Shown one piece after another: positions 7,873 to 60,070 of a DNA stretch of 64,000 nt. The stretch's first letter is position 1, and every line of letters starts with the position of its first letter. Source of the stretch: a virus (taxonomy: Duplodnaviria > Heunggongvirae > Uroviricota > Caudoviricetes); IMG/VR virus record IMGVR_UViG_2667527592_000002; one strand, written 5' to 3'. The translations under genes were made by a program, and so were the position numbers. A model generated the notes under the pieces. It did not search any database. It saw only the letters and a list, made by a program, of their open reading frames with translations, and was not told the DNA's origin.

Positions 7873-8871
7873 ATGCAATCACTGAATACTGTTACGGATC
7901 GCTTCTCCCTGGTAGAGAAAATCCGCAAACACACACCGCAGAACAACCGAAATTACGTCATTCAGTCGGTACGAGACACATTCAACTCGCCAGAAACAAA
8001 AGAGCGTATCGCGCTGGGGGAGATGTATGGTTATTACGGTCATGGTCGCCGGGCGATGCACTATAACAAAACGAAAAGCCTGAACTTGCCGGAAGTCTCT
8101 GTTGTGATGGTAGATGGGAAGCCTGTTGTATTGGAGAATGTGCCGTCAAACAGGACTATCGACATTTCGATTGACGACAACGGCATTGTTACGCATACGC
8201 AGGAAATACTGGATACAGACACCGGGCGTATTGTTCAGGGCATGATTAATTCTGGTGCTGGTGGTTGGTCGTGGGCTACATCTGGTCCAGATTCATCGGT
8301 ATCCCTGGTAAAGTCTTTCCACGGCTTTGATTACGTAACTGTGCCTAACTATATCAGCCTCGACAAGAAAAGCCTGATGCTTGAATCAGCAGAAGAGCGC
8401 GATGCGGCTATTCATGCAGCACTTATCGAACAAGGTTTTACCGATAACGCTGCTACGGATCTGGTTCACCACTTTTCAGCAATGAAAAATCAGCAAGCCA
8501 TGCTCGAATCTGCACATCGTGAAGCCCTGGAATCAGAATTGATGCTCCTTGAAGTGGAAAACATACAGCTTCGAGATAAGCTGCGCGCTCAAACAGCGAT
8601 GATGGAAAGCCAGGGGGAAAATGCAAAGCAATGCCGCCGGATTTTGCGTGACGCTATCCAGGAAATGCCTGTTTTTATCAGCGCAGAACAGCGCCGGGCG
8701 CTCTGCCGTATGCAGTCTGAAGATGATGCCCGCATAGTGGCTGCGATGCTTGAATCTCTTGGGGCAAATGCTACTTATGGCTTACCGGTATCAGGCAAGA
8801 AAGAACCAGAGTTATCACCGAAGGAGAACAAAAACACCACCCCGTTACTCTTCGTTTCTAGAAGGGGGTAA
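7873..8871 (+). CDS. hypothetical protein (head protease/scaffold position)
   Basis: 332 aa, C-terminal coiled coil; position after portal-like gene. Confidence 0.25.
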   Translation: MQSLNTVTDRFSLVEKIRKHTPQNNRNYVIQSVRDTFNSPETKERIALGEMYGYYGHGRRAMHYNKTKSLNLPEVSVVMVDGKPVVLENVPSNRTIDISIDDNGIVTHTQEILDTDTGRIVQGMINSGAGGWSWATSGPDSSVSLVKSFHGFDYVTVPNYISLDKKSLMLESAEERDAAIHAALIEQGFTDNAATDLVHHFSAMKNQQAMLESAHREALESELMLLEVENIQLRDKLRAQTAMMESQGENAKQCRRILRDAIQEMPVFISAEQRRALCRMQSEDDARIVAAMLESLGANATYGLPVSGKKEPELSPKENKNTTPLLFVSRRG

Positions 8872-8889
8872 CCGCCTTGTTAAGTTAAA

Positions 8890-8899
8890 TTTCTAACAT
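8890..8899 (-). promoter_or_regulatory. TGTTAGAAAA-type recurrent motif (candidate operator)
   Basis: tttctaacat on + strand, followed by palindrome gtgtatttatatacac (8901..8916). Confidence 0.4.
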
Positions 8900-8984
8900 A
8901 GTGTATTTATATACACTGTTGATCCTGGTGGATGGGATCGAGTAGGATCGCGGTCACTGCTCCGGTAGCGACTGCCAAAAAAGC

Positions 8985-9009
8985 AAAAGCCGCTGAGAAG
9001 CGGCTTTTT
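8985..9009 (+). terminator. rho-independent terminator
   Basis: aaaagccgct-gaga-agcggctttt followed by T-run. Confidence 0.6.
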
Positions 9010-9071
9010 GGGTGTATAAATCCACTGCCATAGATTTATACGGTAGATAGATTTTTTCACGGAACTATCTG

Positions 9072-10034
9072 GTGAGTATTTTAAATTCAGTTTCAGTAAC
9101 TTTCAACACTTCTGAGTATAAAAACAACACTGAATACCACAAAAAAATCAAAGGTCATCAGTTGAGTTTTTTTGCTCGTCATAGCGGTCTTCTTTCCCCT
9201 TCACATAGCGCCATTATTGCCGAGTTCGCCAACCTGGCAGGGTCTACCGATGAATACATGATCCGTCGCTCATATGCTGATATGTCCGAGATTACAGGAC
9301 GCAGCATTTCTACTGTGCGCCGGGCATTTGCTGAAGCGACGAAGTGCGGAATGCTTGTTAAGCAACATCAGGTAGCGAATAACAATGCCCAGGTGTGTAA
9401 CGTATATCGGTTTACGACACAATTTCTCCACTTCATTCATGTAGCAATGGAGATAGGGGGTAAGCAGGGCATCAAATTTGCCAACGCCACAAAGCTGGTT
9501 AAGCAATTGATTTCAAAGGTACGTTATTTTTTTGAAACTGGGAACCCCCTGTTCAAATTGAACAAGTCCCCCCATGTTCAAAATGAACAGCCAATAGAAA
9601 ATAAGAGTCACTCTATAGCCAAAAGAAGAGAAAGATCATGCGCGGTTCAGCCAAAGGCTTCACTAGCAAATAGTTCTCAAGCGGATAATGGGTGGCTGGA
9701 TAAAAAACCAGTAATCAGGGAAGAACATACCAACCACTGCCTGGCGGCGGCAAAAGCGAGAGCTGCAAAGCGTCGTTCAGACGAGGGGCACGCAAAACGG
9801 CAGGCTCTGTATCGTACCGCTGAAAAGCTGGCAAAAAAATTTGCATGGATACGTAGTGCCGCTACCGCAGTGAATAAGCCTAAACAATCCAGCGCCCTGG
9901 ATTTCTCAATGGATTATTCTGGCTCCCAGGGGTGTGCAACCATTGGTGAAGCCTTTGACCTGATGAAACAGCGTGGCTATCGGTCTGAATTTGACCGTGA
10001 GGATTGGTCAATCCCTGCGGGATTTAGGGGATGA
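9072..10034 (+). CDS. HTH DNA-binding protein, possible lytic replication initiator (RepL-like; speculative)
   Basis: 320 aa; ...MSEITGRSISTVRRAFAEATKCGMLVK... HTH; two internal palindromes TGTTCAAATTGAACA / TGTTCAAAATGAACA at 9550..9589. Confidence 0.3.
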   Translation: MSILNSVSVTFNTSEYKNNTEYHKKIKGHQLSFFARHSGLLSPSHSAIIAEFANLAGSTDEYMIRRSYADMSEITGRSISTVRRAFAEATKCGMLVKQHQVANNNAQVCNVYRFTTQFLHFIHVAMEIGGKQGIKFANATKLVKQLISKVRYFFETGNPLFKLNKSPHVQNEQPIENKSHSIAKRRERSCAVQPKASLANSSQADNGWLDKKPVIREEHTNHCLAAAKARAAKRRSDEGHAKRQALYRTAEKLAKKFAWIRSAATAVNKPKQSSALDFSMDYSGSQGCATIGEAFDLMKQRGYRSEFDREDWSIPAGFRG

Positions 10035-23513: not shown

Positions 23514-23589
23514 GATGGTGTAGCTCAGCGGTTAGAGCGGTTGACTGTTAATCAACGGGTCGATGGTTCAAATCCATCCACCATCGCCA
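23514..23589 (+). tRNA. tRNA-Asn (anticodon GTT)
   Basis: 76 nt cloverleaf folded by hand; acceptor GATGGTG/CACCATC, T-loop TTCAAAT, anticodon loop CTGTTAA, encoded CCA. Confidence 0.9.
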
Positions 23590-23591
23590 AT

Positions 23592-23667
23592 GCCGGTTTA
23601 GCTCAGTTGGTAGAGCGCCTGCCTTGTAAGCAGGATGTCAGCGGTTCGAGTCCGTTAACCGGCACCA
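23592..23667 (+). tRNA. tRNA-Thr (anticodon TGT)
   Basis: 76 nt; acceptor GCCGGTT/AACCGGC, D-arm GCTCAGTTGGTAGAGC, anticodon loop CTTGTAA, CCA. Confidence 0.9.
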
Positions 23668-23677
23668 GCACAACAGG

Positions 23678-23757
23678 TAAGGGTATTTTGCGACGTCGGA
23701 GATCGCCGAGCTTGGCAGAGGGTTCGAATCCCTACGAAGTACCCTTACCGTTGTGAT
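23678..23757 (+). ncRNA. tRNA-like degenerate hairpin module (unit A)
   Basis: GGTAAGGGTA...GGTTCGAATCCC...TACCCTTACC: acceptor-like stem and T-loop-like element but no canonical cloverleaf and no CCA. Confidence 0.3.
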
Positions 23758-23889
23758 GAATGCGCAGGCTGATGCGCGAAAGACATTGCAGCTATTGCGG
23801 AAAAGAGCTGTCCGGCGGGGCAATTAAACGCCCGTGAGAGTCTGAAATAACCGCAAGCCGGAGATCAGCACCGGTCATCACAACACAAC

Positions 23890-23950
23890 AGGTAAGGGCA
23901 TTCTCCCTTATGGGGCTTGGCTTAAATGCATCGAGTGCTCTTACCGTTGT
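23890..23950 (+). ncRNA. hairpin module (unit B) sharing leader and trailer with unit A
   Basis: GGTAAGGGC...GCTCTTACC stem of about 9 bp; flanked by ggagatcagcacc leader and cgttgtgatgaa trailer. Confidence 0.25.
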
Positions 23951-24337
23951 GATGAAGTGCAGCTCTTTGAAGCAACCAGAAGATAAGCATCTGGCTTCAC
24001 AACATAAACCGCAGGAACGACCAATAAACGGTAGTCCGTATGGAGAACACCCCGTTGAGGAAGAGGCCTGGCCGGAACCGTAACCGGCACTACAACGTTG
24101 AGAACACTGGCGTAACGGGGTCATATCCCAATCTACGAATAAATGTTGCGTTGCAGCGTGACAACCAGTGTTCTCAACATTGTGGTGAATGCGTGTTGCT
24201 GGCGCGCAAGTCCGCCCTATGGCAACGAGGCGGCGTAGTAAATATCGATGCCTCAGTCATCAAGCGCACTGACCGGCCTTATGGGCTATGAAAAAAAGAG
24301 GCGCAGTCGGAGATCAGCACCGACCACCACAATCAAT

Positions 24338-24424
24338 GGAGAGTAGGGAGCATGGTGCTCAAGCGGTCTTGAAAACCGTCCCATTGCGCAAGCGATGATG
24401 GTTCGATTCCATTACTCTCCGCCA
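24338..24424 (+). tRNA. tRNA-Ser-like (anticodon TGA), long variable arm, atypical D-arm
   Basis: acceptor GGAGAGT/ACTCTCC, anticodon arm GCGGTCTTGAAAACCGT, T-loop TTCGATT, CCA; D-arm non-canonical. Confidence 0.6.
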
Positions 24425-24584
24425 TCGCAACGTTAAGAGTATTTGGCTAATTAAGCGAATGCCGGAAGCAGAACCGGATCACCAAATGCGTACAGGCGTC
24501 ATCGCCGCCCAGCCAGCCAAGTGCTCTTACCATTGCGGTGAATGCGGCTAAGCGCACGCGGAACAGTTAAAACAATCCTCCTTA

Positions 24585-24908
24585 GTGGTTAAGTCAAACA
24601 TCCCGGCGTTAATTGTTAACTGGTTAACGTCACCTGGAGGCACCAGGCACCGCAATCTAATAAAGTTTCAAGCAATGGGGTTTTTGTTGTCAGACTTCAG
24701 ATATAGATGGTTGTGGAAGGAGAGCCTGTACATAGTGCAGTTATTTCTTCCGCTATTTGTCTGCTTTGTCATGCTTCCTGAGCTGAAATACGCAATTTCA
24801 GACACTTTAAGCACTATCGTTACTTTTGTGTTTTATCTTTACTTTGATTACTTATTGAGCACTAAAATCAATGAATTATCCGAGGAAATGCAAGGTGGCT
24901 GTAAGTGA
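24585..24908 (+). CDS. small hydrophobic protein (start uncertain)
   Basis: ORF between tRNAs with two predicted TM helices. Confidence 0.25.
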   Translation: MVKSNIPALIVNWLTSPGGTRHRNLIKFQAMGFLLSDFRYRWLWKESLYIVQLFLPLFVCFVMLPELKYAISDTLSTIVTFVFYLYFDYLLSTKINELSEEMQGGCK

Positions 24909-24909
24909 T

Positions 24910-25038
24910 GGATTTTTGGGCGTTTGCCGATAAGAACCCTGGTTGGACATTTTTATTTTTGCTGGTGGTTGCATATGGGGTCGAGCAAGCGGCTAAAGCC
25001 TTACGCGGTTCTGGCAAAAAGCGTAAGCGGAATTAACA
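24910..25038 (+). CDS. small membrane protein (42 aa; below ORF-track cutoff)
   Basis: MDFWAFADKNPGWTFLFLLVVAYGVEQAAKALRGSGKKRKRN; one TM helix, basic tail. Confidence 0.25.
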
Positions 25039-25045
25039 GTAATCT

Positions 25046-25121
25046 GGCCCTTTAGCTCAGTGGTTAGAGCAGGCGACTCATAATCGCACGGTCACCGGTT
25101 CAAATCCGGTAGGGGCCACCA
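25046..25121 (+). tRNA. tRNA-Ile2-like (anticodon CAT, lysidine type) or tRNA-Met
   Basis: 76 nt; near-identical arms to E. coli ileX as recalled: GGCCCTTTAGCTCAGTGGTTAGAGCAGGCGACTCATAATCGC... Confidence 0.9.
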
Positions 25122-52505: not shown

Positions 52506-53129
52506 TTATTGCCCGTATTTTTTACACCATTGCTCTGCCATTTGTTTGGCTAAAGGCCCGGCTACTGCACTGTATTCTGCTGTTTTACTTTGCACACATG
52601 AAGCAGATGGTTTTTTATTTCGCTGCTCGGTTAGTTTGCGCTCATAAGCCATCATGCTATCGAACCCGGCAATATCACTTTGGCGAAGCATTCCCTTTTT
52701 AACCAAAAATTGCTGCCCCTCTGGCACCAACGCAAGCATAAAAAGTGGTTGCAATAACTCACCTAATCCTTGCTGGCGATACACTTCGAATTGCTGCCAT
52801 CCCTGACTTAATCTGGAAAGAGTATCTTTGGTTGAATAACCTGTTTTTGTTATAGCTTTGTCCGTCAGATATGCTGTATATGCAAAAACGCAAAAGTCAG
52901 TTTTACCAATAAACTGAGTTCCAACAGGCCGTAATGGAATGCCCTCCCTCTTGCAAAAGTCCATAATTGCCGCTTGTGAATGATCCCCACCAGCGTTATT
53001 CATAACCTGCTGCCCTGCCCTGAATTGTGCAGGTAACGCAGTTGCATTGGCAGTATTAACAGATACGCATCCCAACATAGCCGCGAGCGCGGCCCCTAAA
53101 ACCCTTAACTTCACTACACCATCCTTCAT
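52506..53129 (-). CDS. secreted / periplasmic protein (possible superinfection-exclusion type; speculative)
   Basis: N-terminal signal-like region, 207 aa; position near immI-like module. Confidence 0.35.
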   Translation of the reverse strand: MKDGVVKLRVLGAALAAMLGCVSVNTANATALPAQFRAGQQVMNNAGGDHSQAAIMDFCKREGIPLRPVGTQFIGKTDFCVFAYTAYLTDKAITKTGYSTKDTLSRLSQGWQQFEVYRQQGLGELLQPLFMLALVPEGQQFLVKKGMLRQSDIAGFDSMMAYERKLTEQRNKKPSASCVQSKTAEYSAVAGPLAKQMAEQWCKKYGQ

Positions 53130-53397: not shown

Positions 53398-54051
53398 ATG
53401 GAAAAGATCGCAATATTCAGCCTGACCACCAGCAAGCCTCAAATGCTCACTGCAATACTGAAAGACGGTGCTCTCATTATTAACGAAGTAAAACCCCTTC
53501 CCGCGTCAGCATTGGAGCAAAAGCAAAAAATTCCTCCAGCTATAGCAGCCCTGCGGAAAAGCAAATTTAAGGTACTGGTAGACGAAATTACGCCAACGAT
53601 CTCCGCTGGCACCGGAGCAAGCCAGGTGACTCTCAAGACCCGTCATGCCGATGGCAGAGCAGCAATCATCGTCGGGATGGAAAGATACAGAGAGTTAAAA
53701 CTCCAGAAGCTATTATCCCTGCCGCAAAATAACAAAGGTGCTTTCGAAATCCCCGACTCTATCGTTGATACCGAATACAACGGTAACGGAGAAGAAGTCT
53801 ACAGGGTGAACTGGCAGGATATCAGGCCGGAGCATATTCTGATGATCCTGTGTTGCTACGCGACCGTATACCAAAACGTTGCCAGTGCAGATTACGTAGA
53901 GCAGATGACCGGGACAGTCGAGAAAGAGCAAAAAACAAGCATACTCGCTTCGTTCCTTTCCATTATTGGGCATGAAAAAGTTAAAGCAGGCACCTCCCAG
54001 CCAAAGTCACTGGCTGGGAAAGAAGTTGATGAAGATACCGTGATACTTTGA
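53398..54051 (+). CDS. hypothetical protein
   Basis: ATG at 53398 preceded by GAAGGAAGG; ORF track starts earlier inside the hairpin. Confidence 0.35.
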   Translation: MEKIAIFSLTTSKPQMLTAILKDGALIINEVKPLPASALEQKQKIPPAIAALRKSKFKVLVDEITPTISAGTGASQVTLKTRHADGRAAIIVGMERYRELKLQKLLSLPQNNKGAFEIPDSIVDTEYNGNGEEVYRVNWQDIRPEHILMILCCYATVYQNVASADYVEQMTGTVEKEQKTSILASFLSIIGHEKVKAGTSQPKSLAGKEVDEDTVIL

Positions 54052-54379
54052 TCACATTAGTAGCTTTGTTAACTCCCTCAATACCAGGTAGAAGAGTAAC
54101 AAAAATATTGACGCGAGTATTTGAGTGGTCAATGAAGCGTTCATAAACAGATCAATTAGCATTAATAATTCGAAGATAACATCCATGTCATTCACTCCGT
54201 TTAATTTTTAATCTAATGCCAGCAAAGGAAGCTGGCCCCCGCATAAAGATTAATGAAAGTCACTTGTCACCAGTGAGGGGATTTATGAACCACATCCCCC
54301 TGAACTGGTGGCCTGTCTGTTTCTCGCATTTCACACCCTGCATACAGTTTCCCCCAGGTTATGACTGAGAGGCTTTGTT

Positions 54380-54709
54380 ATGGGCTATAGCAGACTCGAC
54401 GATAGGTACATTGAAGACGATATTTTTCGTGCGCTGTTTCACCAGGAAATGATTAAGCGGGTATCGGAGTATCACTCTGATAATTTCCAGTACACGATAA
54501 AGATTGATGAAGTATATCGTTCAGACCTTGCAGCCTACAGGGCGTATGGCAATGCAGATTTGCGCTGGGTATTCCGGGTGCTGGTGGGCCATGAGTCAGA
54601 AATGGAAGAAATGCCCGCCGGGACCACGTTAACTCTTCCTGATGTGGCATGGCTGAGGAACAAGATCCGTGATTACGCGAGCGCGGAACCGGAGATAGAA
54701 AATGCCTGA
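54380..54709 (+). CDS. hypothetical protein
   Basis: 109 aa ORF. Confidence 0.3.
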   Translation: MGYSRLDDRYIEDDIFRALFHQEMIKRVSEYHSDNFQYTIKIDEVYRSDLAAYRAYGNADLRWVFRVLVGHESEMEEMPAGTTLTLPDVAWLRNKIRDYASAEPEIENA

Positions 54710-55895
54710 TTTCCTGAAAAACCAGGACGGGCGCTATATCACTGACGGCCTGTCCTCTAAGGACTTCACGCGTTTATTCGACCTTATCAGGAAAGAACAA
54801 ACCCGTAAGCGCCGACAAGCTCACCGGACGCTGACGCCAGGCAGACTTAGGAACAAATCCGCCGAAGATATTCTCAAGTTAGGGAAGAAAAAAGGCGGCA
54901 CGTTCTTCACGCGAGACGACCTGAAAGGTTTCGAAAAGCTACGGAGTAAAACGCGCGAAAAATATGACAGCAAGACGGCTGGCATCACATACGCCCAGCT
55001 GGTGGCATCCAGCCAGGCAATCGATATTAAGCGTGCAAATAACGCCGTGGATGACGGATCTGGTATCAAAAGAGCTACACCCGTATCTCTTCGCCACAAT
55101 GTGATTAATATCCGCGTAGAAGCATCGGATATATCCGTCCACCAGCACCATATCGTCCGGATACGCTTTGAAGAATGGGATCAGATGGTTGATGACATCG
55201 CAGAAGACGATAAATCAGCTCTCAAAATAACTAAATCACTGTGCGCCGGGCGAGTGTCTTTCGATTGTGACTGTGGTCGCCATCAATACTGGTATCGCTA
55301 CATCGCCACTGCGGGTAACTTTGCCCTGGCACCGCCAAAAGAATACGCCTATCCAAAAGTTCGCAACCCTAAGCTGCAAGGTGTCGCCTGTAAACACGTG
55401 ATTCACGCAATGACGCGGTTACAGTCCGCCAGTTGGCAAATGAGTATTGCTCGTGCGCTACAAAAGGCTGCAACGCAAATTGCATTTGGTGACGATCGCC
55501 GCCGTACAACCAAACACTTCTCAAAAGAAGACGAGAAGGAGTTTAATCGCAATCGTAGCAGTAAAACGAACGTTGAAGCCGCCAAACGCGAATGGAGGCT
55601 CTATCAGAAGCGCCAGGCAGCTTTAAGTACAAAACTGGCAAAGGACAACGGCAAGATCGACAAACTACGTGACCAATTGACCAAGGCCAGAAAGTTGTCA
55701 GACGCACAGAAAAAACGGGCGGCAGCAAAAGAAGCGGCCTTGCAACGTGAGAAACAGAAAAACAAGGAGCTTCAGCAACGCCTTGCCGATCAGTTCGCAC
55801 TGAAGAAGCAGGCGTTCATTGATGCGCTTGTCATGGCTGGAACACCACCAGCACAAGCTGAAAAAATGTTCATGGAGTATGTAAAAAAAGCATAA
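54702..55895 (+). CDS. hypothetical protein with SWIM-like zinc-finger motif and basic coiled-coil tail
   Basis: ...SFDCDCGRH...GVACKHVIHA... (CxC...CxH). Confidence 0.35.
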   Translation: MPDFLKNQDGRYITDGLSSKDFTRLFDLIRKEQTRKRRQAHRTLTPGRLRNKSAEDILKLGKKKGGTFFTRDDLKGFEKLRSKTREKYDSKTAGITYAQLVASSQAIDIKRANNAVDDGSGIKRATPVSLRHNVINIRVEASDISVHQHHIVRIRFEEWDQMVDDIAEDDKSALKITKSLCAGRVSFDCDCGRHQYWYRYIATAGNFALAPPKEYAYPKVRNPKLQGVACKHVIHAMTRLQSASWQMSIARALQKAATQIAFGDDRRRTTKHFSKEDEKEFNRNRSSKTNVEAAKREWRLYQKRQAALSTKLAKDNGKIDKLRDQLTKARKLSDAQKKRAAAKEAALQREKQKNKELQQRLADQFALKKQAFIDALVMAGTPPAQAEKMFMEYVKKA

Positions 55896-55928
55896 ACCAC
55901 ACATAGCCTAGCTGCCTAGGCTAGGCTT

Positions 55929-56657
55929 TCATCTTTTTGAAAAATCAATTTCCGTTTTATCAAATAAATTTGAAATATCAGCAACCAATTTATTAAAATC
56001 ATGATCGCCATTATAAAGCGAAGTCTTCTTTATTGCCATTACAAAATCATATAACTTTTCTGGGGAGTCAATACCAACCCCTCTACTTTTAAAAAGCTCA
56101 ATGATAACTCCAACATCATCATATAATAACTTTATTGCCGCTATAATCTCTTTTTGCTGCCTAAGAAATCTCTCAAGTTCATTTTTATTTTCATCCATAA
56201 TTCTTTTGTTGAATTGTGTATCATTAATACTTTTTATTATTTCAGTCTCTTTTATTTGCAACGCCTTTCTTTTATTTTGATCCATGTCGGCATCCAAATA
56301 CCTTATCTCTGTATATATTTTACTTGTTAGCTTTGATACGCAAAGAGTGACAATCGGAGCTGCAATTGATGCAATAATTCCAAAAATAAATGGCAAGCCA
56401 AAATGATAAAACCAAGGAGACAAAACGCCTTCATAAACTAGAGGAATCTTACCTCCAACAAATGTTACAGATAAAGTATATAGGATATCATCCTTTGACT
56501 TCATCAATATTAGTATATCTTTCCAATTAATAATTAAAAAAGAAATGAATATATATGCAAACACTTTATTAAAAAGCTTGTCTTTTATGGCATCTCCAAA
56601 AGATACTTTGATTAGATCATTTTCAGTCAATTTTTCTGTTGATGAATCTGTATTCAT
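55929..56657 (-). CDS. membrane protein encoded by strongly AT-rich DNA
   Basis: 242 aa; two predicted TM helices then K/E-rich helical domain; base composition visibly more AT-rich than flanks. Confidence 0.5.
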   Translation of the reverse strand: MNTDSSTEKLTENDLIKVSFGDAIKDKLFNKVFAYIFISFLIINWKDILILMKSKDDILYTLSVTFVGGKIPLVYEGVLSPWFYHFGLPFIFGIIASIAAPIVTLCVSKLTSKIYTEIRYLDADMDQNKRKALQIKETEIIKSINDTQFNKRIMDENKNELERFLRQQKEIIAAIKLLYDDVGVIIELFKSRGVGIDSPEKLYDFVMAIKKTSLYNGDHDFNKLVADISNLFDKTEIDFSKR

Positions 56658-56719
56658 ATAAACTACCGGGATTACTAATATCTATTTTATGAAAATAGCG
56701 GTCATCCAGACCGCCAAAC

Positions 56720-57079
56720 TCAAATACCAACCAAGCTTTCAAGAGGAATGCCAAACTGGGAATGTAAACGGCGAATCATAGGTAACGTCAAATTTCGTGT
56801 CCCATTTAGCACTTCGTAAACACGATTTGACTTACCAATCGCCGGTTCCAGATCCTTCACGGTCAGCCCTTGCTGTTCCATACGGAATTTAATGGCCTCA
56901 ATAGGTGATGGTGGCTCAATTGGGTAATGTTTTTTCTCGTACTCCTCAATGAGAAGACACATGACCTCAAAGAAATCACCTTCCGGGGTGTTCATTTCCG
57001 GTTCGTTATCGAACATCGGTTCGACCGCACGCAGTGCGGCCTCATAATCTTGTTCTGTACGGATAGGTTTAATGTTCAT
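56720..57079 (-). CDS. higA: HigA-family antitoxin (HTH)
   Basis: ...LTVKDLEPAIGKSNRVYEVLNGTRNLTLPMIRRLHSQFGIPLESL...; downstream of toxin (hig order). Confidence 0.75.
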   Translation of the reverse strand: MNIKPIRTEQDYEAALRAVEPMFDNEPEMNTPEGDFFEVMCLLIEEYEKKHYPIEPPSPIEAIKFRMEQQGLTVKDLEPAIGKSNRVYEVLNGTRNLTLPMIRRLHSQFGIPLESLVGI

Positions 57080-57082
57080 GAT

Positions 57083-57388
57083 TTACTCCAGTTCTATTGT
57101 ATCCGCGTCAATGGCATCGTATTCCTTGTGTGTTCCAATAAATTTAACGAACATCCATCCTCGCTGATAAGCAATTGCGACAATTAACCTGTAATCATTT
57201 CCCTTAATATTGAACACCACGCGCCTGTTTTTAAGGATGCTGGCTGTCCGGTACTGTTCTTTGATCTCAGCCGGATTTTTCCAGTCAGCCTTTGTTGCTT
57301 CATCAACCCATGCCTTTAATGGCTGTTCTGCATCGGGATTCTTCGCCCAGAAATCCCTTAGTGTCTTTACCGAAATTATTTTCATCAC
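57083..57388 (-). CDS. higB: HigB-family toxin (RelE/ParE superfamily)
   Basis: ...RRVVFNIKGNDYRLIVAIAYQRGWMFVKFIGTHKEYDAI... Confidence 0.75.
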   Translation of the reverse strand: MMKIISVKTLRDFWAKNPDAEQPLKAWVDEATKADWKNPAEIKEQYRTASILKNRRVVFNIKGNDYRLIVAIAYQRGWMFVKFIGTHKEYDAIDADTIELE

Positions 57389-57415
57389 AGATTCCTTCTT
57401 TCTGAAAGTATAGTA

Positions 57416-57460
57416 GTCCCAATATGGGACAATGTAAAGTACTTTAGTCCCATGCTGGGA
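57416..57460. promoter_or_regulatory. paired palindromes upstream of higB (candidate HigA operator)
   Basis: GTCCCAATATGGGAC (57416..57430) and TCCCATGCTGGGA (57448..57460). Confidence 0.4.
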
Positions 57461-57530
57461 TATGAATTGAAATCACAATCTCCAGACAATGCACCCTCGA
57501 TACCTGATAAATCGACCTTTGAGGATGCTT

Positions 57531-58322
57531 ATGGGCCGTTTTGACGAATGGTTTGCTGACGATGCAAACCTGGCAAGTAAGGAGTCAGAACATGACAGCA
57601 CGCAGAGAGAAACGCCAGCGGCGGTTGAAGCGGATGCAGGAAGCGCGCCGGAACATGGCAATGCCGGACCGGATTCATTCAGCATTCTGGAAGAGCAATC
57701 CACCGCCGAAGCTGATAGCCATGATAATTTTGCTGATAGCAACGGTGGCCTTACTCCGGACGCTGGCGAATCAAATATAGCCATACTTCCACCTTCCCTG
57801 GCTGGCAGAGAACCGACTCCACAGCTAAAAGCACGCTATAACGGGCATAAAGCCTTTAACGACCAAATCCGCGCAGACTGGATGCTGATTATTGAATCCA
57901 GCCCAGACGCGTTTCAGGCTCTCTTATATCGACCAGATGTTGGCACATATGGGGTAGTCAGCGACGAAACAGGAGAAGAGTCATTCACTGAACTGGATAA
58001 CAACCAACGCGAACTGACTTACCAGGAACCTGAAATCGTTTATGTGCTGGATAACCCGGACGGGCGTGACTCTTTCCATGCGATTGACGCAGACGGTGAG
58101 CAGGATGGCTTAACCGATGATGTTCTGATTCTGCGTATTGCAGCAAATAACGTCCCCGTCGGATCAATTCTTGAATGGAATGAAGAGATGGTAAACGGCG
58201 TAGCCCGCCGCTGGTTGTACGTGCACCGTATTTTTAGCTACGGCACACAGCATGTTGGTTCGCTTTACTACTGCATACCGGCCAGGAATTTTGATACGAC
58301 TCAAAACGGAGTGATCGAATGA
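57531..58322 (+). CDS. hypothetical protein, acidic N-terminal half
   Basis: ATG at 57531 with GAGGA RBS; ORF track starts earlier. Confidence 0.35.
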   Translation: MGRFDEWFADDANLASKESEHDSTQRETPAAVEADAGSAPEHGNAGPDSFSILEEQSTAEADSHDNFADSNGGLTPDAGESNIAILPPSLAGREPTPQLKARYNGHKAFNDQIRADWMLIIESSPDAFQALLYRPDVGTYGVVSDETGEESFTELDNNQRELTYQEPEIVYVLDNPDGRDSFHAIDADGEQDGLTDDVLILRIAANNVPVGSILEWNEEMVNGVARRWLYVHRIFSYGTQHVGSLYYCIPARNFDTTQNGVIE

Positions 58323-59086
58323 CTTCAAATAAAACCCTCCTGGCGCGAACAGGTGAATGGCAAACCTCACGCACAGGAAAATTCCAGACCACGGGCTTTG
58401 AAAGCGTGGATAACGCGTTTGCTACGCTAATCAGCAATATCTTTTCTGATATCTTACTGGTGGCCCCCGCGCCGGAAGAAAAACGCTTTGCGTCATTCCT
58501 GAATCGTCCACCAGCAGAGCGTGTCTATGTGGCCCGTTTCGACAATGCGATCGAGTTTCTTAAAGCAGTTCGTCGCGCAAATGCCGGGCAAGGGAGAAAA
58601 CCTGAAAACCAGAACATTAACCGGGATGCTCTCCCCCTGGTCAATATCTCACGCACTATGGATATCAATTATATCAACGATGATCAGCAGATTGACCGCA
58701 AAAAAGTAGCCAGTTTTTGCGAACCGGATACCGGAATGCCTTTAGCAGAACTGGAATACACCCAGGCCATTCTGACGTATGACGTTACGTTAATGGCAAC
58801 TGATAAAGCGACCATGAGTCTGATGTGTAATTCGCTGGGCGCACGGCTTCGCCTGATGACAGGTACACAATTTGAAGCAACCACTCACCTTGTTCGTGTC
58901 CCGGTCCCGCTGATTTGCTCGATACAGGATGCCAAAGAAGTCGGCTTTACGGATGTTTCAGCACCAATTGGAGAAGAGCGTATTTATGCCACACAAGCGC
59001 CGATAAGTGTGATTGCAGACGTGATCACAGCATGGGAGTTGGACGCAAAACGTATTATTACCGAAACCTCGATATCTATGGGGTGA
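58319..59086 (+). CDS. hypothetical protein (possible virion component)
   Basis: 255 aa, overlapping start; same operon as gpV-like gene. Confidence 0.3.
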   Translation: MTSNKTLLARTGEWQTSRTGKFQTTGFESVDNAFATLISNIFSDILLVAPAPEEKRFASFLNRPPAERVYVARFDNAIEFLKAVRRANAGQGRKPENQNINRDALPLVNISRTMDINYINDDQQIDRKKVASFCEPDTGMPLAELEYTQAILTYDVTLMATDKATMSLMCNSLGARLRLMTGTQFEATTHLVRVPVPLICSIQDAKEVGFTDVSAPIGEERIYATQAPISVIADVITAWELDAKRIITETSISMG

Positions 59087-59089
59087 TAA

Positions 59090-60070
59090 GTGGCCCAGGA
59101 GTTACAACAATATTTTCTACAGTCAGTGCTCATTAACGATAACAAAGTGCCACGAGACTGGATTTTTACCGCAGTATATGTAGAAAAAACCAGCCTCAAA
59201 GCCCCTTTGCTAAAACTGGAAATTCATGACGCTACCGGCACCGTAATTGATGACTGGAAAGCCAAATACGGTGCATCGCTGGTGGCTGAAATGGGCGATC
59301 CAAACGGTAATGCAGGCACTTTTAAAACAGATTTCTTTGTTACGTCTGCAATGCTGGCTGGTGATGTTGTTACCGTTATTGCTGTCAGTGAAGACGTGCG
59401 CAGGTTTAAGATCCCCTCCCCGCGCACAAATTTACATACCAACAAAACACCAGACGCTATATTCAAGGCATATTCCGGCAAGCTTAAAATTACCAGCAGC
59501 GTGCTAAAACGCGCAGTTACATATCATCTGAATGCTGGTGACAAACCGTCAAAAATGCTTTCGGAGATAGCGCGAGACAAAGGTGCATTGTGTTGGGTAT
59601 GTCGGGGGGAATTTAACTTTTACACCCTGGCTGATCTGATGAAGCAAACGCCATCATTTACCTACGAGGGGAATAACCCTAAAGCAGAATACACTTTGTC
59701 AAAAATGCGCCTACTCCAACAGGAACATGCGTCAACAGCAAAGAATCAATATCGTTTTGTTGGGTATTCCATGACCGATGGCTACGTCGAATATGGCGAT
59801 AGCTCACTCCCAGTGCGTTATATATCCGACTCTGATATGGAAACTCTTCGCAATATGCAGCTGTCTCTCGTCCCCAAAATGGATATAGAAGTCGCAGGCA
59901 ATCCTGATATAAAACCGGGGATGGTAATAGAGATTATCGTATACCGCTATGACCAGGAAAACCGCATTGATGAATCAATGCCCCGTAAGCTGATAGTAAA
60001 AAATGTTGCGCACTTTGAGGACCGCGTAGGCTACACAACACGAATGATATTGGGAGTGCCGAACAAATGA
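59090..60070 (+). CDS. hypothetical protein (possible baseplate component)
   Basis: 326 aa, immediately upstream of gpV-like gene. Confidence 0.3.
   Translation: MAQELQQYFLQSVLINDNKVPRDWIFTAVYVEKTSLKAPLLKLEIHDATGTVIDDWKAKYGASLVAEMGDPNGNAGTFKTDFFVTSAMLAGDVVTVIAVSEDVRRFKIPSPRTNLHTNKTPDAIFKAYSGKLKITSSVLKRAVTYHLNAGDKPSKMLSEIARDKGALCWVCRGEFNFYTLADLMKQTPSFTYEGNNPKAEYTLSKMRLLQQEHASTAKNQYRFVGYSMTDGYVEYGDSSLPVRYISDSDMETLRNMQLSLVPKMDIEVAGNPDIKPGMVIEIIVYRYDQENRIDESMPRKLIVKNVAHFEDRVGYTTRMILGVPNK

Follow-up and report, generated by a model that had tools for sequence, protein, structure and literature searches.

The 64,000-nucleotide (nt) stretch of viral DNA considered here (hereafter, the window; Caudoviricetes, IMG/VR virus record IMGVR_UViG_2667527592_000002) is a close relative of Escherichia phage D6, a P1-like plasmid prophage, with 98.7% identity across 93% of positions 54000-59500. 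This region contains three minus-strand open reading frames (ORFs), comprising higB, higA and a gene for a 242-amino-acid (aa) inner-membrane protein, that are located between two plus-strand tail genes. The left flank is the homolog of P1 gene 25 (54702..55895; phrog_1722, 2e-197; D6 orf74), whose product shares 57.6% identity with P1 gp25, and the right flank is the homolog of P1 gene 7 (57489..58322; phrog_1906, 2.5e-113, with the match beginning at residue 14; D6 orf69), for which relatives are annotated with a start at 57531 rather than at 57489 as here. In P1 and in Cronobacter phage JK004 these genes follow the uninterrupted order 26-25-7-24-6-5 with 3 nt between genes 25 and 7, whereas 1.6 kb of antisense genes separates the two homologs in the window; the block is accordingly a D6-lineage-specific insertion. 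An initial reading of the DNA (the original prediction) had described a higBA toxin-antitoxin (TA) pair and a foreign membrane-protein gene that interrupt a virion operon and may together constitute a defense or exclusion module. The positions and strand of the three genes, the toxin-first order of the TA pair and the interruption of a tail/baseplate operon are all confirmed by our analysis, but the TA pair and the membrane-protein gene proved to be separate units that share an insertion site.

The gene 25/gene 7 junction is an accessory-gene (moron) hotspot of D6-like phage-plasmids at which cargo is exchanged. Other D6-like plasmids carry at the same site an AlpA-like gene only, a gene for a 179-aa protein only, HigBA only, or a RelE/HigA pair together with a member of the membrane-protein family. 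Parts of the three-gene block are present in 95 of 5,426 complete E. coli genomes, plasmid-borne every time, and the exact gene combination of the window was found in none of these genomes and in none of 72,556 PLSDB plasmids. The window is a recombinant, with D6 itself having exchanged a window-type higB for a RelE/HigA pair. D6-like phage-plasmids are common in E. coli and Salmonella, the literature searched does not describe the P1 gene 25/gene 7 junction as a hotspot, and the site is worth retaining as a location of cargo exchange. A by-eye comparison with P1 LP26 gave no convincing match to a P1-type late promoter from which transcription would resume at gene 7, and a search of positions 55500-57800 against Rfam returned zero RNA families.

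The toxin gene higB (57083..57385, minus strand) encodes 100 aa from an ATG at 57385, the start annotated in relatives, and its ORF reaches a GTG at 57388. The predicted product, a ribosome-dependent mRNA interferase by family, matches the Pfam entry PF09907 HigB_toxin (3.4e-34, 117 bits vs a cut-off of 27) and aligns over residues 1-93 with HigB of E. coli K-12 (PDB 5IFG_A/5YCL_B, 1e-7). The antitoxin and repressor gene higA (56720..57079, minus strand) encodes 119 aa with an N-terminal toxin-binding part and a C-terminal XRE-type helix-turn-helix (HTH) domain, as indicated by HTH_3 at residues 63-115 (24.2 bits vs a cut-off of 23) and by alignment of residues 6-112 with E. coli K-12 HigA (PDB 5IFG_B/5YCL_A, 2e-8). 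The two genes are separated by 3 nt, each has its own Shine-Dalgarno sequence, and both are near the phage average in guanine-plus-cytosine (GC) content (higA 45%, higB 42%). They share with the E. coli K-12 pair (YgjN/YgjM) the PF09907 toxin, the domain arrangement of HigA, the toxin-first order and palindromic operators over the promoter (predicted sites in the window), but the relationship is distant (E ~1e-7) and HigA has 119 rather than 138 aa. Like the annotated higBA of D6-like plasmids, the window pair resides on a plasmid prophage of low copy number, a setting in which it would be expected to act in addiction. Judged by sequence, HigB and HigA are a canonical E. coli K-12-type type II TA pair. 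The higBA module is ordinary and already annotated in D6-like plasmids, and in D6 it has been handled as a post-segregational killing module and counted only as a plasmid maintenance system (PMC6799933).

The operator-like sites noted in the original prediction are two palindromes upstream of higB, of which the distal one (TCCCAgcaTGGGA, 57448..57460, a match to TCCCANNNTGGGA) lies 5' of the -35 element of the putative promoter and the proximal one (GTCCCAtatTGGGAC, 57416..57430) lies between its -35 and -10 elements. Exactly two copies of the motif TCCCA-N3-TGGGA are present in the 64 kb (57417-57429 and 57448-57460, 31 bp apart) against a chance expectation of 0.06, two sites were reached in none of 100 shuffles, and among the loci fetched for comparison the motif is confined to those with a window-type higB. 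The promoter (57410..57438, minus strand; TTTACA/17 nt/TACTAT) is sigma-70-like with 9 of 12 consensus positions matched; promoter-like matches in the higBA region are not enriched over shuffles, and the assignment was made relative to the palindromes and an AAGGA ribosome-binding site. Downstream of higA lies an intrinsic-terminator hairpin (56696..56716, minus strand; GGCGGTC-TGGAT-GACCGCT followed by ATTTTCAT) with a predicted fold of -16.6 kcal/mol (z = -4.8). From what is known of the family, HigA, alone or with HigB, would be expected to bind the two palindromes and repress the promoter, and loss of the plasmid prophage or a stop in HigA synthesis would allow the labile antitoxin to decay and HigB to cleave ribosome-bound mRNA. 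Such activity would stabilize the plasmid prophage, with the abortion of some infections as a further possible effect; HigBA is probably an autoregulated addiction module of the plasmid prophage.

The third gene is carried by an AT-rich mobile cassette (55891..56697, minus strand; 29.7% GC) that was delimited by blastn breakpoints, composition and junction alignments and consists of a leader of ~40 nt, the coding sequence of the 242-aa protein (55929..56657, minus strand) and a 3' hairpin. A windowed GC calculation agrees with the earlier impression of foreign DNA, as the coding sequence has 29.1% GC (0.23 at third codon positions) against a window mean of 47.8% (z = -5.55) and represents both the lowest 729-nt stretch in the window and the only one under 36% GC. 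Comparison with sister elements by blastn places the cassette boundaries at 55890/56698, and in the window the AT-rich DNA starts exactly at the 3' base of the intact higBA terminator stem. In plasmid L002, which carries higBA without the cassette, 20 bp are found in place of the cassette; here GGCGGTC-TGTAT-GACCGCC and TTTGTTGT form a complete intrinsic terminator after the higA stop, and gene 25 ends 20 bp further on. Because the stem is intact in the window and the AT-rich DNA begins at its base, the cassette must have inserted 3' of the higBA terminator, and it brought its own hairpin (55904..55927). This hairpin is located between the convergent ends of the membrane-protein gene and the gene 25 homolog and is terminator-like mainly on the plus strand, where it is followed by a T-run (RNA fold of -15.0 kcal/mol, z = -2.8; minus strand z = -1.8). 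Rather than being a gene conserved in all relatives with the GC content of the phage, the membrane-protein gene is missing from P1, JK004 and several D6-like plasmids, and the cassette combines deviant composition, absence from close relatives and a position between late-operon genes, as morons do. The cassette shares with recognized prophage morons (the P2 orf30, Z/fun and tin/old regions) low GC, an antisense orientation to late genes, flanking terminators and variable presence or content among close relatives, and differs from them in that no promoter of its own is established.

The higBA operon and the membrane-protein gene are two independent units stacked head to tail and not the single defense module of the original prediction, as a terminator stands at their junction and each unit is found without the other. 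D6 retains the cassette and the 119-aa HTH gene, but its higB position is occupied by a RelE/HigA (112 aa) pair that has a separate promoter, and the breakpoint between D6 and the window is at the higB/higA boundary. The commonest plasmid variant (~43 of the 60 best PLSDB matches as judged by span and annotation, with one example plus one Logan contig checked, L004 and L009) combines RelE/HigA, the first 189 bp of the 119-aa gene, which lack an HTH domain, and an intact member of the membrane-protein family (56-58% identical). As a separate observation, the HigA-type gene of D6 (L001, 5721-6080), which persists as an orphan without its higB or operators, and the 189-bp 5' remnant in L004 (3199-3387), which constitutes a PHROG of its own (phrog_10398, 66 aa), look like decay stages of a displaced antitoxin.

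These data bear directly on the possibility that the three genes form one tripartite defense system like PD-lambda-2, in which HigB/HigA would act as sensor or switch and the membrane protein as effector or accessory. HigB and HigA score strongly against the PADLOC profiles PD-Lambda-2_A (PDLC03979, 3.5e-42) and PD-Lambda-2_B (7e-43, at profile positions 1-119 of 402 only), and in PD-lambda-2, a HigB-like system of three genes, defense depends on the third gene (PMC9519451). The window resembles this system in its HigB-like first gene, in the HigA-like HTH N-terminus and in having three genes on one strand, with short gaps between them; in addition, the family members of D6-like elements all adjoin a TA pair, and another homolog follows a TacA/TacT pair. 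However, the definition of PD-lambda-2 (Vassallo et al. 2022, PMC9519451) calls for an ImmA/IrrE peptidase fused to HigA-HTH and for a third protein that is P4-antitoxin-like, whereas the second protein of the window ends at 119 aa without a peptidase domain and the third is an unrelated membrane protein, terminator-separated and independently mobile, that matches neither PD-Lambda-2_C nor any other PADLOC profile. Because these two defining features fail, the window is not PD-lambda-2, and the PADLOC matches reflect common HigBA ancestry. A single tripartite system is also unlikely, as the stable terminator separates higA from a cassette whose junction falls at the terminator stem, HigBA stands alone at the same site in L002, the membrane-protein gene is kept beside a non-homologous RelE/HigA pair and a truncated higA, and it occurs without higBA in P2-like and lambdoid prophages, in Klebsiella and in islands.

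The same variants were considered with respect to a second arrangement, in which the membrane protein would be the toxin, the 119-aa HTH protein its repressor or antitoxin, and HigB an add-on. Toxins are often small membrane proteins, and both D6 and locus L023 keep an intact 119-aa HTH gene beside the membrane-protein gene despite replacement of higB. This arrangement is nevertheless highly improbable, since the commonest variant has an intact membrane-protein gene next to an HTH-gene remnant that has lost its HTH domain, the HigA operators are missing from D6-type loci, and remote homologs have no adjacent HTH gene.

Taken on its own, the membrane protein belongs to a small, uncharacterized, temperate-phage-associated family that is missing from current defense databases and is annotated solely as phrog_8191, of unknown function. 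A word-indexed search of 5.8 billion proteins returned 19 clusters, all from E. coli or Klebsiella, and an exhaustive profile search of 1.84 billion representatives identified 84 proteins at E <= 1e-3, including 26 at E <= 1e-10, all of 200-380 aa. The profile-search queries comprised the 242-aa protein, 14 close homologs and 61 remote homologs; comparison of the family with Pfam, PADLOC and NCBIfam yielded nothing beyond coiled-coil noise (LmuB, JetC, SMC), and the 242-aa protein itself had zero PADLOC matches at E <= 0.1. A tblastn search of phage records with the remote member from the P2 context matched D6 only. The 275-aa third gene of locus L005, a candidate for unrelated cargo, was rejected as such and is a 45%-identical homolog.

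The two transmembrane (TM) segments of the original prediction correspond to hydrophobic segments at residues 32-52 and 82-108. Across 61 members, residues 25-115 form a conserved 2-TM core in which N44, W45, P89 and P101 are invariant or nearly so, and the C-terminal half is highly variable. An AlphaFold2 (AF2) model built from the 61-sequence alignment reached a predicted local distance difference test (pLDDT) score of 88.1, whereas an earlier model from 14 sequences was poor (pLDDT 64.6). In the model, an N-terminal amphipathic helix is followed by a kinked TM1 (31-53), a short loop helix, a continuous 112-residue helix (81-192) that comprises TM2 and a long coiled-coil stalk, and a small helical knob (199-234). 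The density of lysine plus arginine in the 61 members (0.21 in the N-terminal flank, 0.10 in the loop and 0.18 in the C-terminal flank) suggests an N-in/C-in topology, which would place the variable stalk and knob in the cytoplasm. The profile search and structure prediction proposed earlier yielded a 2-TM/coiled-coil model and no known defense family or fold. A 2-TM pore-loop cation channel (KcsA/NaK/MthK) was rejected, with a best Foldseek E of 1.3, a TM-score <= 0.34 and a loop that is unconserved across the 61 members.

Homologs of the membrane protein occupy diverse genomic contexts. In a Klebsiella grimontii chromosomal element the homolog follows umuD-umuC and converges with a gene 25/26 pair; another D6-like element has a homolog with a different HigB/HTH pair; a P2-like prophage carries one in antisense orientation between gpS and gpV, which is the classical moron region orf30; and a lambdoid prophage carries one antisense in the nin region. 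The homolog that follows TacA/TacT is in another phage element, and in islands homologs are accompanied by a DNA methylase, DUF1173, DUF4942 and H-NS or by an integrase, a WYL regulator and GmrSD. In all contexts but one the family gene has 29-36% GC against 45-55% in its surroundings, the exception being a soil-metagenome island (42% vs 47%). Two of these loci show additional features. Within 6 kb, the Klebsiella grimontii element (L006) also encodes a protein with a Cap4 nuclease domain, an effector domain of the CBASS type, and a HicA/HicB pair (191-1321; 8498-9173). The P2-like orf30 region of locus L014 (5833-6576, minus strand) holds two genes, namely the family member and a gene for a 247-aa protein without a PADLOC match, which can be likened by size and position only to the 741-bp ORF16 of phage R18C (PMC6823313).

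These contexts also inform a third explanation, in which the membrane protein serves the lytic cycle of the phage as a holin/antiholin-like timer, an assembly factor or an injection helper. Such a role would suit a helical membrane protein encoded within the tail/baseplate clusters of two myovirus types, and there are weak, non-significant Foldseek matches to pore-forming 2-TM channel modules. Yet the gene is antisense to the late operon, strongly deviant in composition and not beside lysis genes; it is missing from P1, from JK004 and from several D6-like plasmids that are complete in other respects, and it is present in non-phage islands; and the P2 site is a recognized moron region (PMC6823313, PMC3091744), which the family member itself occupies. 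We consider a lytic role unlikely, and a holin or lysis protein in particular was rejected, given the antisense position between tail genes and the lack of the gene in P1, JK004, L002, L021 and L022.

Allelic variation provides further insight into the history of the family. Among D6-like elements the membrane-protein alleles are 37-56% identical (TM core, 57-72%; C-terminal half, 20-56%), and the flanking tail proteins are 95-100% identical. Synonymous divergence (dS) between alleles is 0.8-2.2 vs 0.02-0.1 for the flanking genes, and the ratio of nonsynonymous to synonymous divergence (omega) is 0.2-0.4, although the estimates for distant allele pairs are saturated. The occurrence of divergent alleles in near-identical backbones therefore indicates old, selectively maintained lineages that were dropped in by recombination. 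Mosaic breakpoints detected by blastn also fall inside the membrane-protein gene, and L005 and the window differ only in the central coiled-coil segment (56000-56290). With 84 representatives, invariant residues, a pLDDT of 88 and an omega of 0.2-0.4 between old alleles, the gene is real and functional.

The family displays several hallmarks of phage-phage conflict genes: its members are compositionally foreign, they occupy moron sites in temperate elements of at least four kinds, their membrane core is conserved, and their old, highly divergent alleles are shuffled among near-identical backbones. Small prophage-encoded membrane proteins that act singly in exclusion or abortive infection include T4 Imm, P22 SieA/SieB, HK97 gp15 and lambda RexB, and 2-TM effectors are known from CBASS and Pycsar systems. 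The window protein has in common with these proteins that it is a small helical inner-membrane protein from an accessory prophage locus and that its membrane part is conserved and its soluble part variable, but it has no detectable sequence or fold relationship with any of them and its single-helix coiled-coil stalk is unusually long. Our preferred interpretation, which we hold with slightly better than even confidence, is that the locus is a hotspot containing an addiction TA pair and an independent membrane protein, expressed in the lysogen, possibly for exclusion or abortive infection. The membrane protein would be made in the lysogen, its transcript either running on through the higBA terminator or starting at a weak promoter that belongs to the gene itself; the protein would sit in the inner membrane, oligomerize through its cytoplasmic coiled coil and act as a single-gene exclusion or abortive-infection factor. 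Its variable cytoplasmic part may recognize some component of an invading phage or a competing element, upon which the conserved 2-TM core could compromise the membrane or block DNA entry.

The proposal of the original prediction that the membrane protein is defense or exclusion cargo is accordingly reasonable from context, but it gained no direct or homology support. Because the protein bears no sequence or fold likeness to known families, an anti-phage role is argued from context and evolutionary pattern, and we regard this role as quite possible, though somewhat short of an even chance. Several observations weigh against the preferred interpretation. No likeness in sequence or fold was detected to any known defense, exclusion, holin or channel family, and recognizable defense genes are nearby in one sampled context only (L028). 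The ORF is preceded in the window allele by no strong Shine-Dalgarno sequence and no convincing sigma-70 promoter, and a stable terminator lies 40 nt 5' of it; because the 40-nt leader that follows this terminator offers just a -10-like TAAAAT without a -35 element, expression of the cassette in the lysogen is putative, and H-NS silencing of such AT-rich DNA is likely. No significant positive selection was found, with the omega of 0.6-1.3 for close pairs resting on just 6-13 substitutions. Finally, the constant adjacency of the membrane-protein gene to a TA pair in D6-like elements leaves some room for functional coupling of the two units.

A further explanation is that the protein is a lysogenic-conversion or anti-defense factor unrelated to phage exclusion, such as an envelope or stress modulator or an inhibitor of a membrane-bound defense or of conjugation. 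Moron placement and allelic diversity fit this explanation equally well, the lack of defense-family homology speaks for it, and 6 of 14 members match the Pfam entry-exclusion family TraS; these matches (E >= 0.03) are not significant and are probably due to composition. With its variable part predicted to be cytoplasmic, the protein is less suited to a surface or host-interaction role, but anti-defense is unaffected by this argument. We consider this explanation less likely than the preferred interpretation.

A more speculative extension, to which we assign little probability, is that the 2-TM/coiled-coil family represents an unrecognized, widespread single-gene system against phages and other mobile genetic elements, with a membrane-disrupting core and an exchangeable cytoplasmic sensor, and that in D6-like elements its position behind the higBA terminator would tie its dose to the state of the TA pair, such that depletion of HigA in the course of infection or stress would derepress higBA and raise the effector level by read-through. 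If so, the TA pair would be the transcriptional trigger of a separate effector. The data show no unusual mechanism so far. The family is a cheap and well-defined candidate for experimental screening, and if active it would provide a new single-gene system together with a natural set of sensor-domain swaps for studies of specificity.

Several observations were also made on the surroundings of the locus. A second accessory hotspot lies immediately 5' of the gene 26 homolog (window 54052-54380; L023 689-1260; L022 1-272), where among sister plasmids L023 carries an extra RelE/ParE-HigA pair and L022 a HigA gene, neither of which is in the window. At this position the window has a very hydrophobic 47-aa ORF (54052-54195, minus strand; MNDMDVIFELLMLIDLF...), antisense between a mat-like gene and the gene 26 homolog, which is equivalent to D6 orf77, annotated as hypothetical, and could be a small membrane peptide. 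The gene 25 homolog contains at about residues 188-235 a CxC...CxH motif (FDCDCGRHQYWY...GVACKHVIHA) reminiscent of a SWIM-type zinc finger, with no Pfam match at E <= 0.01. Further upstream, the ORF at 52506-53129 (minus strand) encodes a 207-aa member of phrog_12786 (function unknown) whose N-terminus has a signal-like hydrophobic segment, and the annotation of the neighboring gene in D6, orf79, notes similarity to P1 simB, an accessory gene of superimmunity. Elsewhere, the window contains four tRNA genes within 1.6 kb (23514-25121, plus strand; Asn-GTT, Thr-TGT, Ser-TGA and Met-CAT), and four tRNAs have been reported for D6-like plasmids (PMC6799933).

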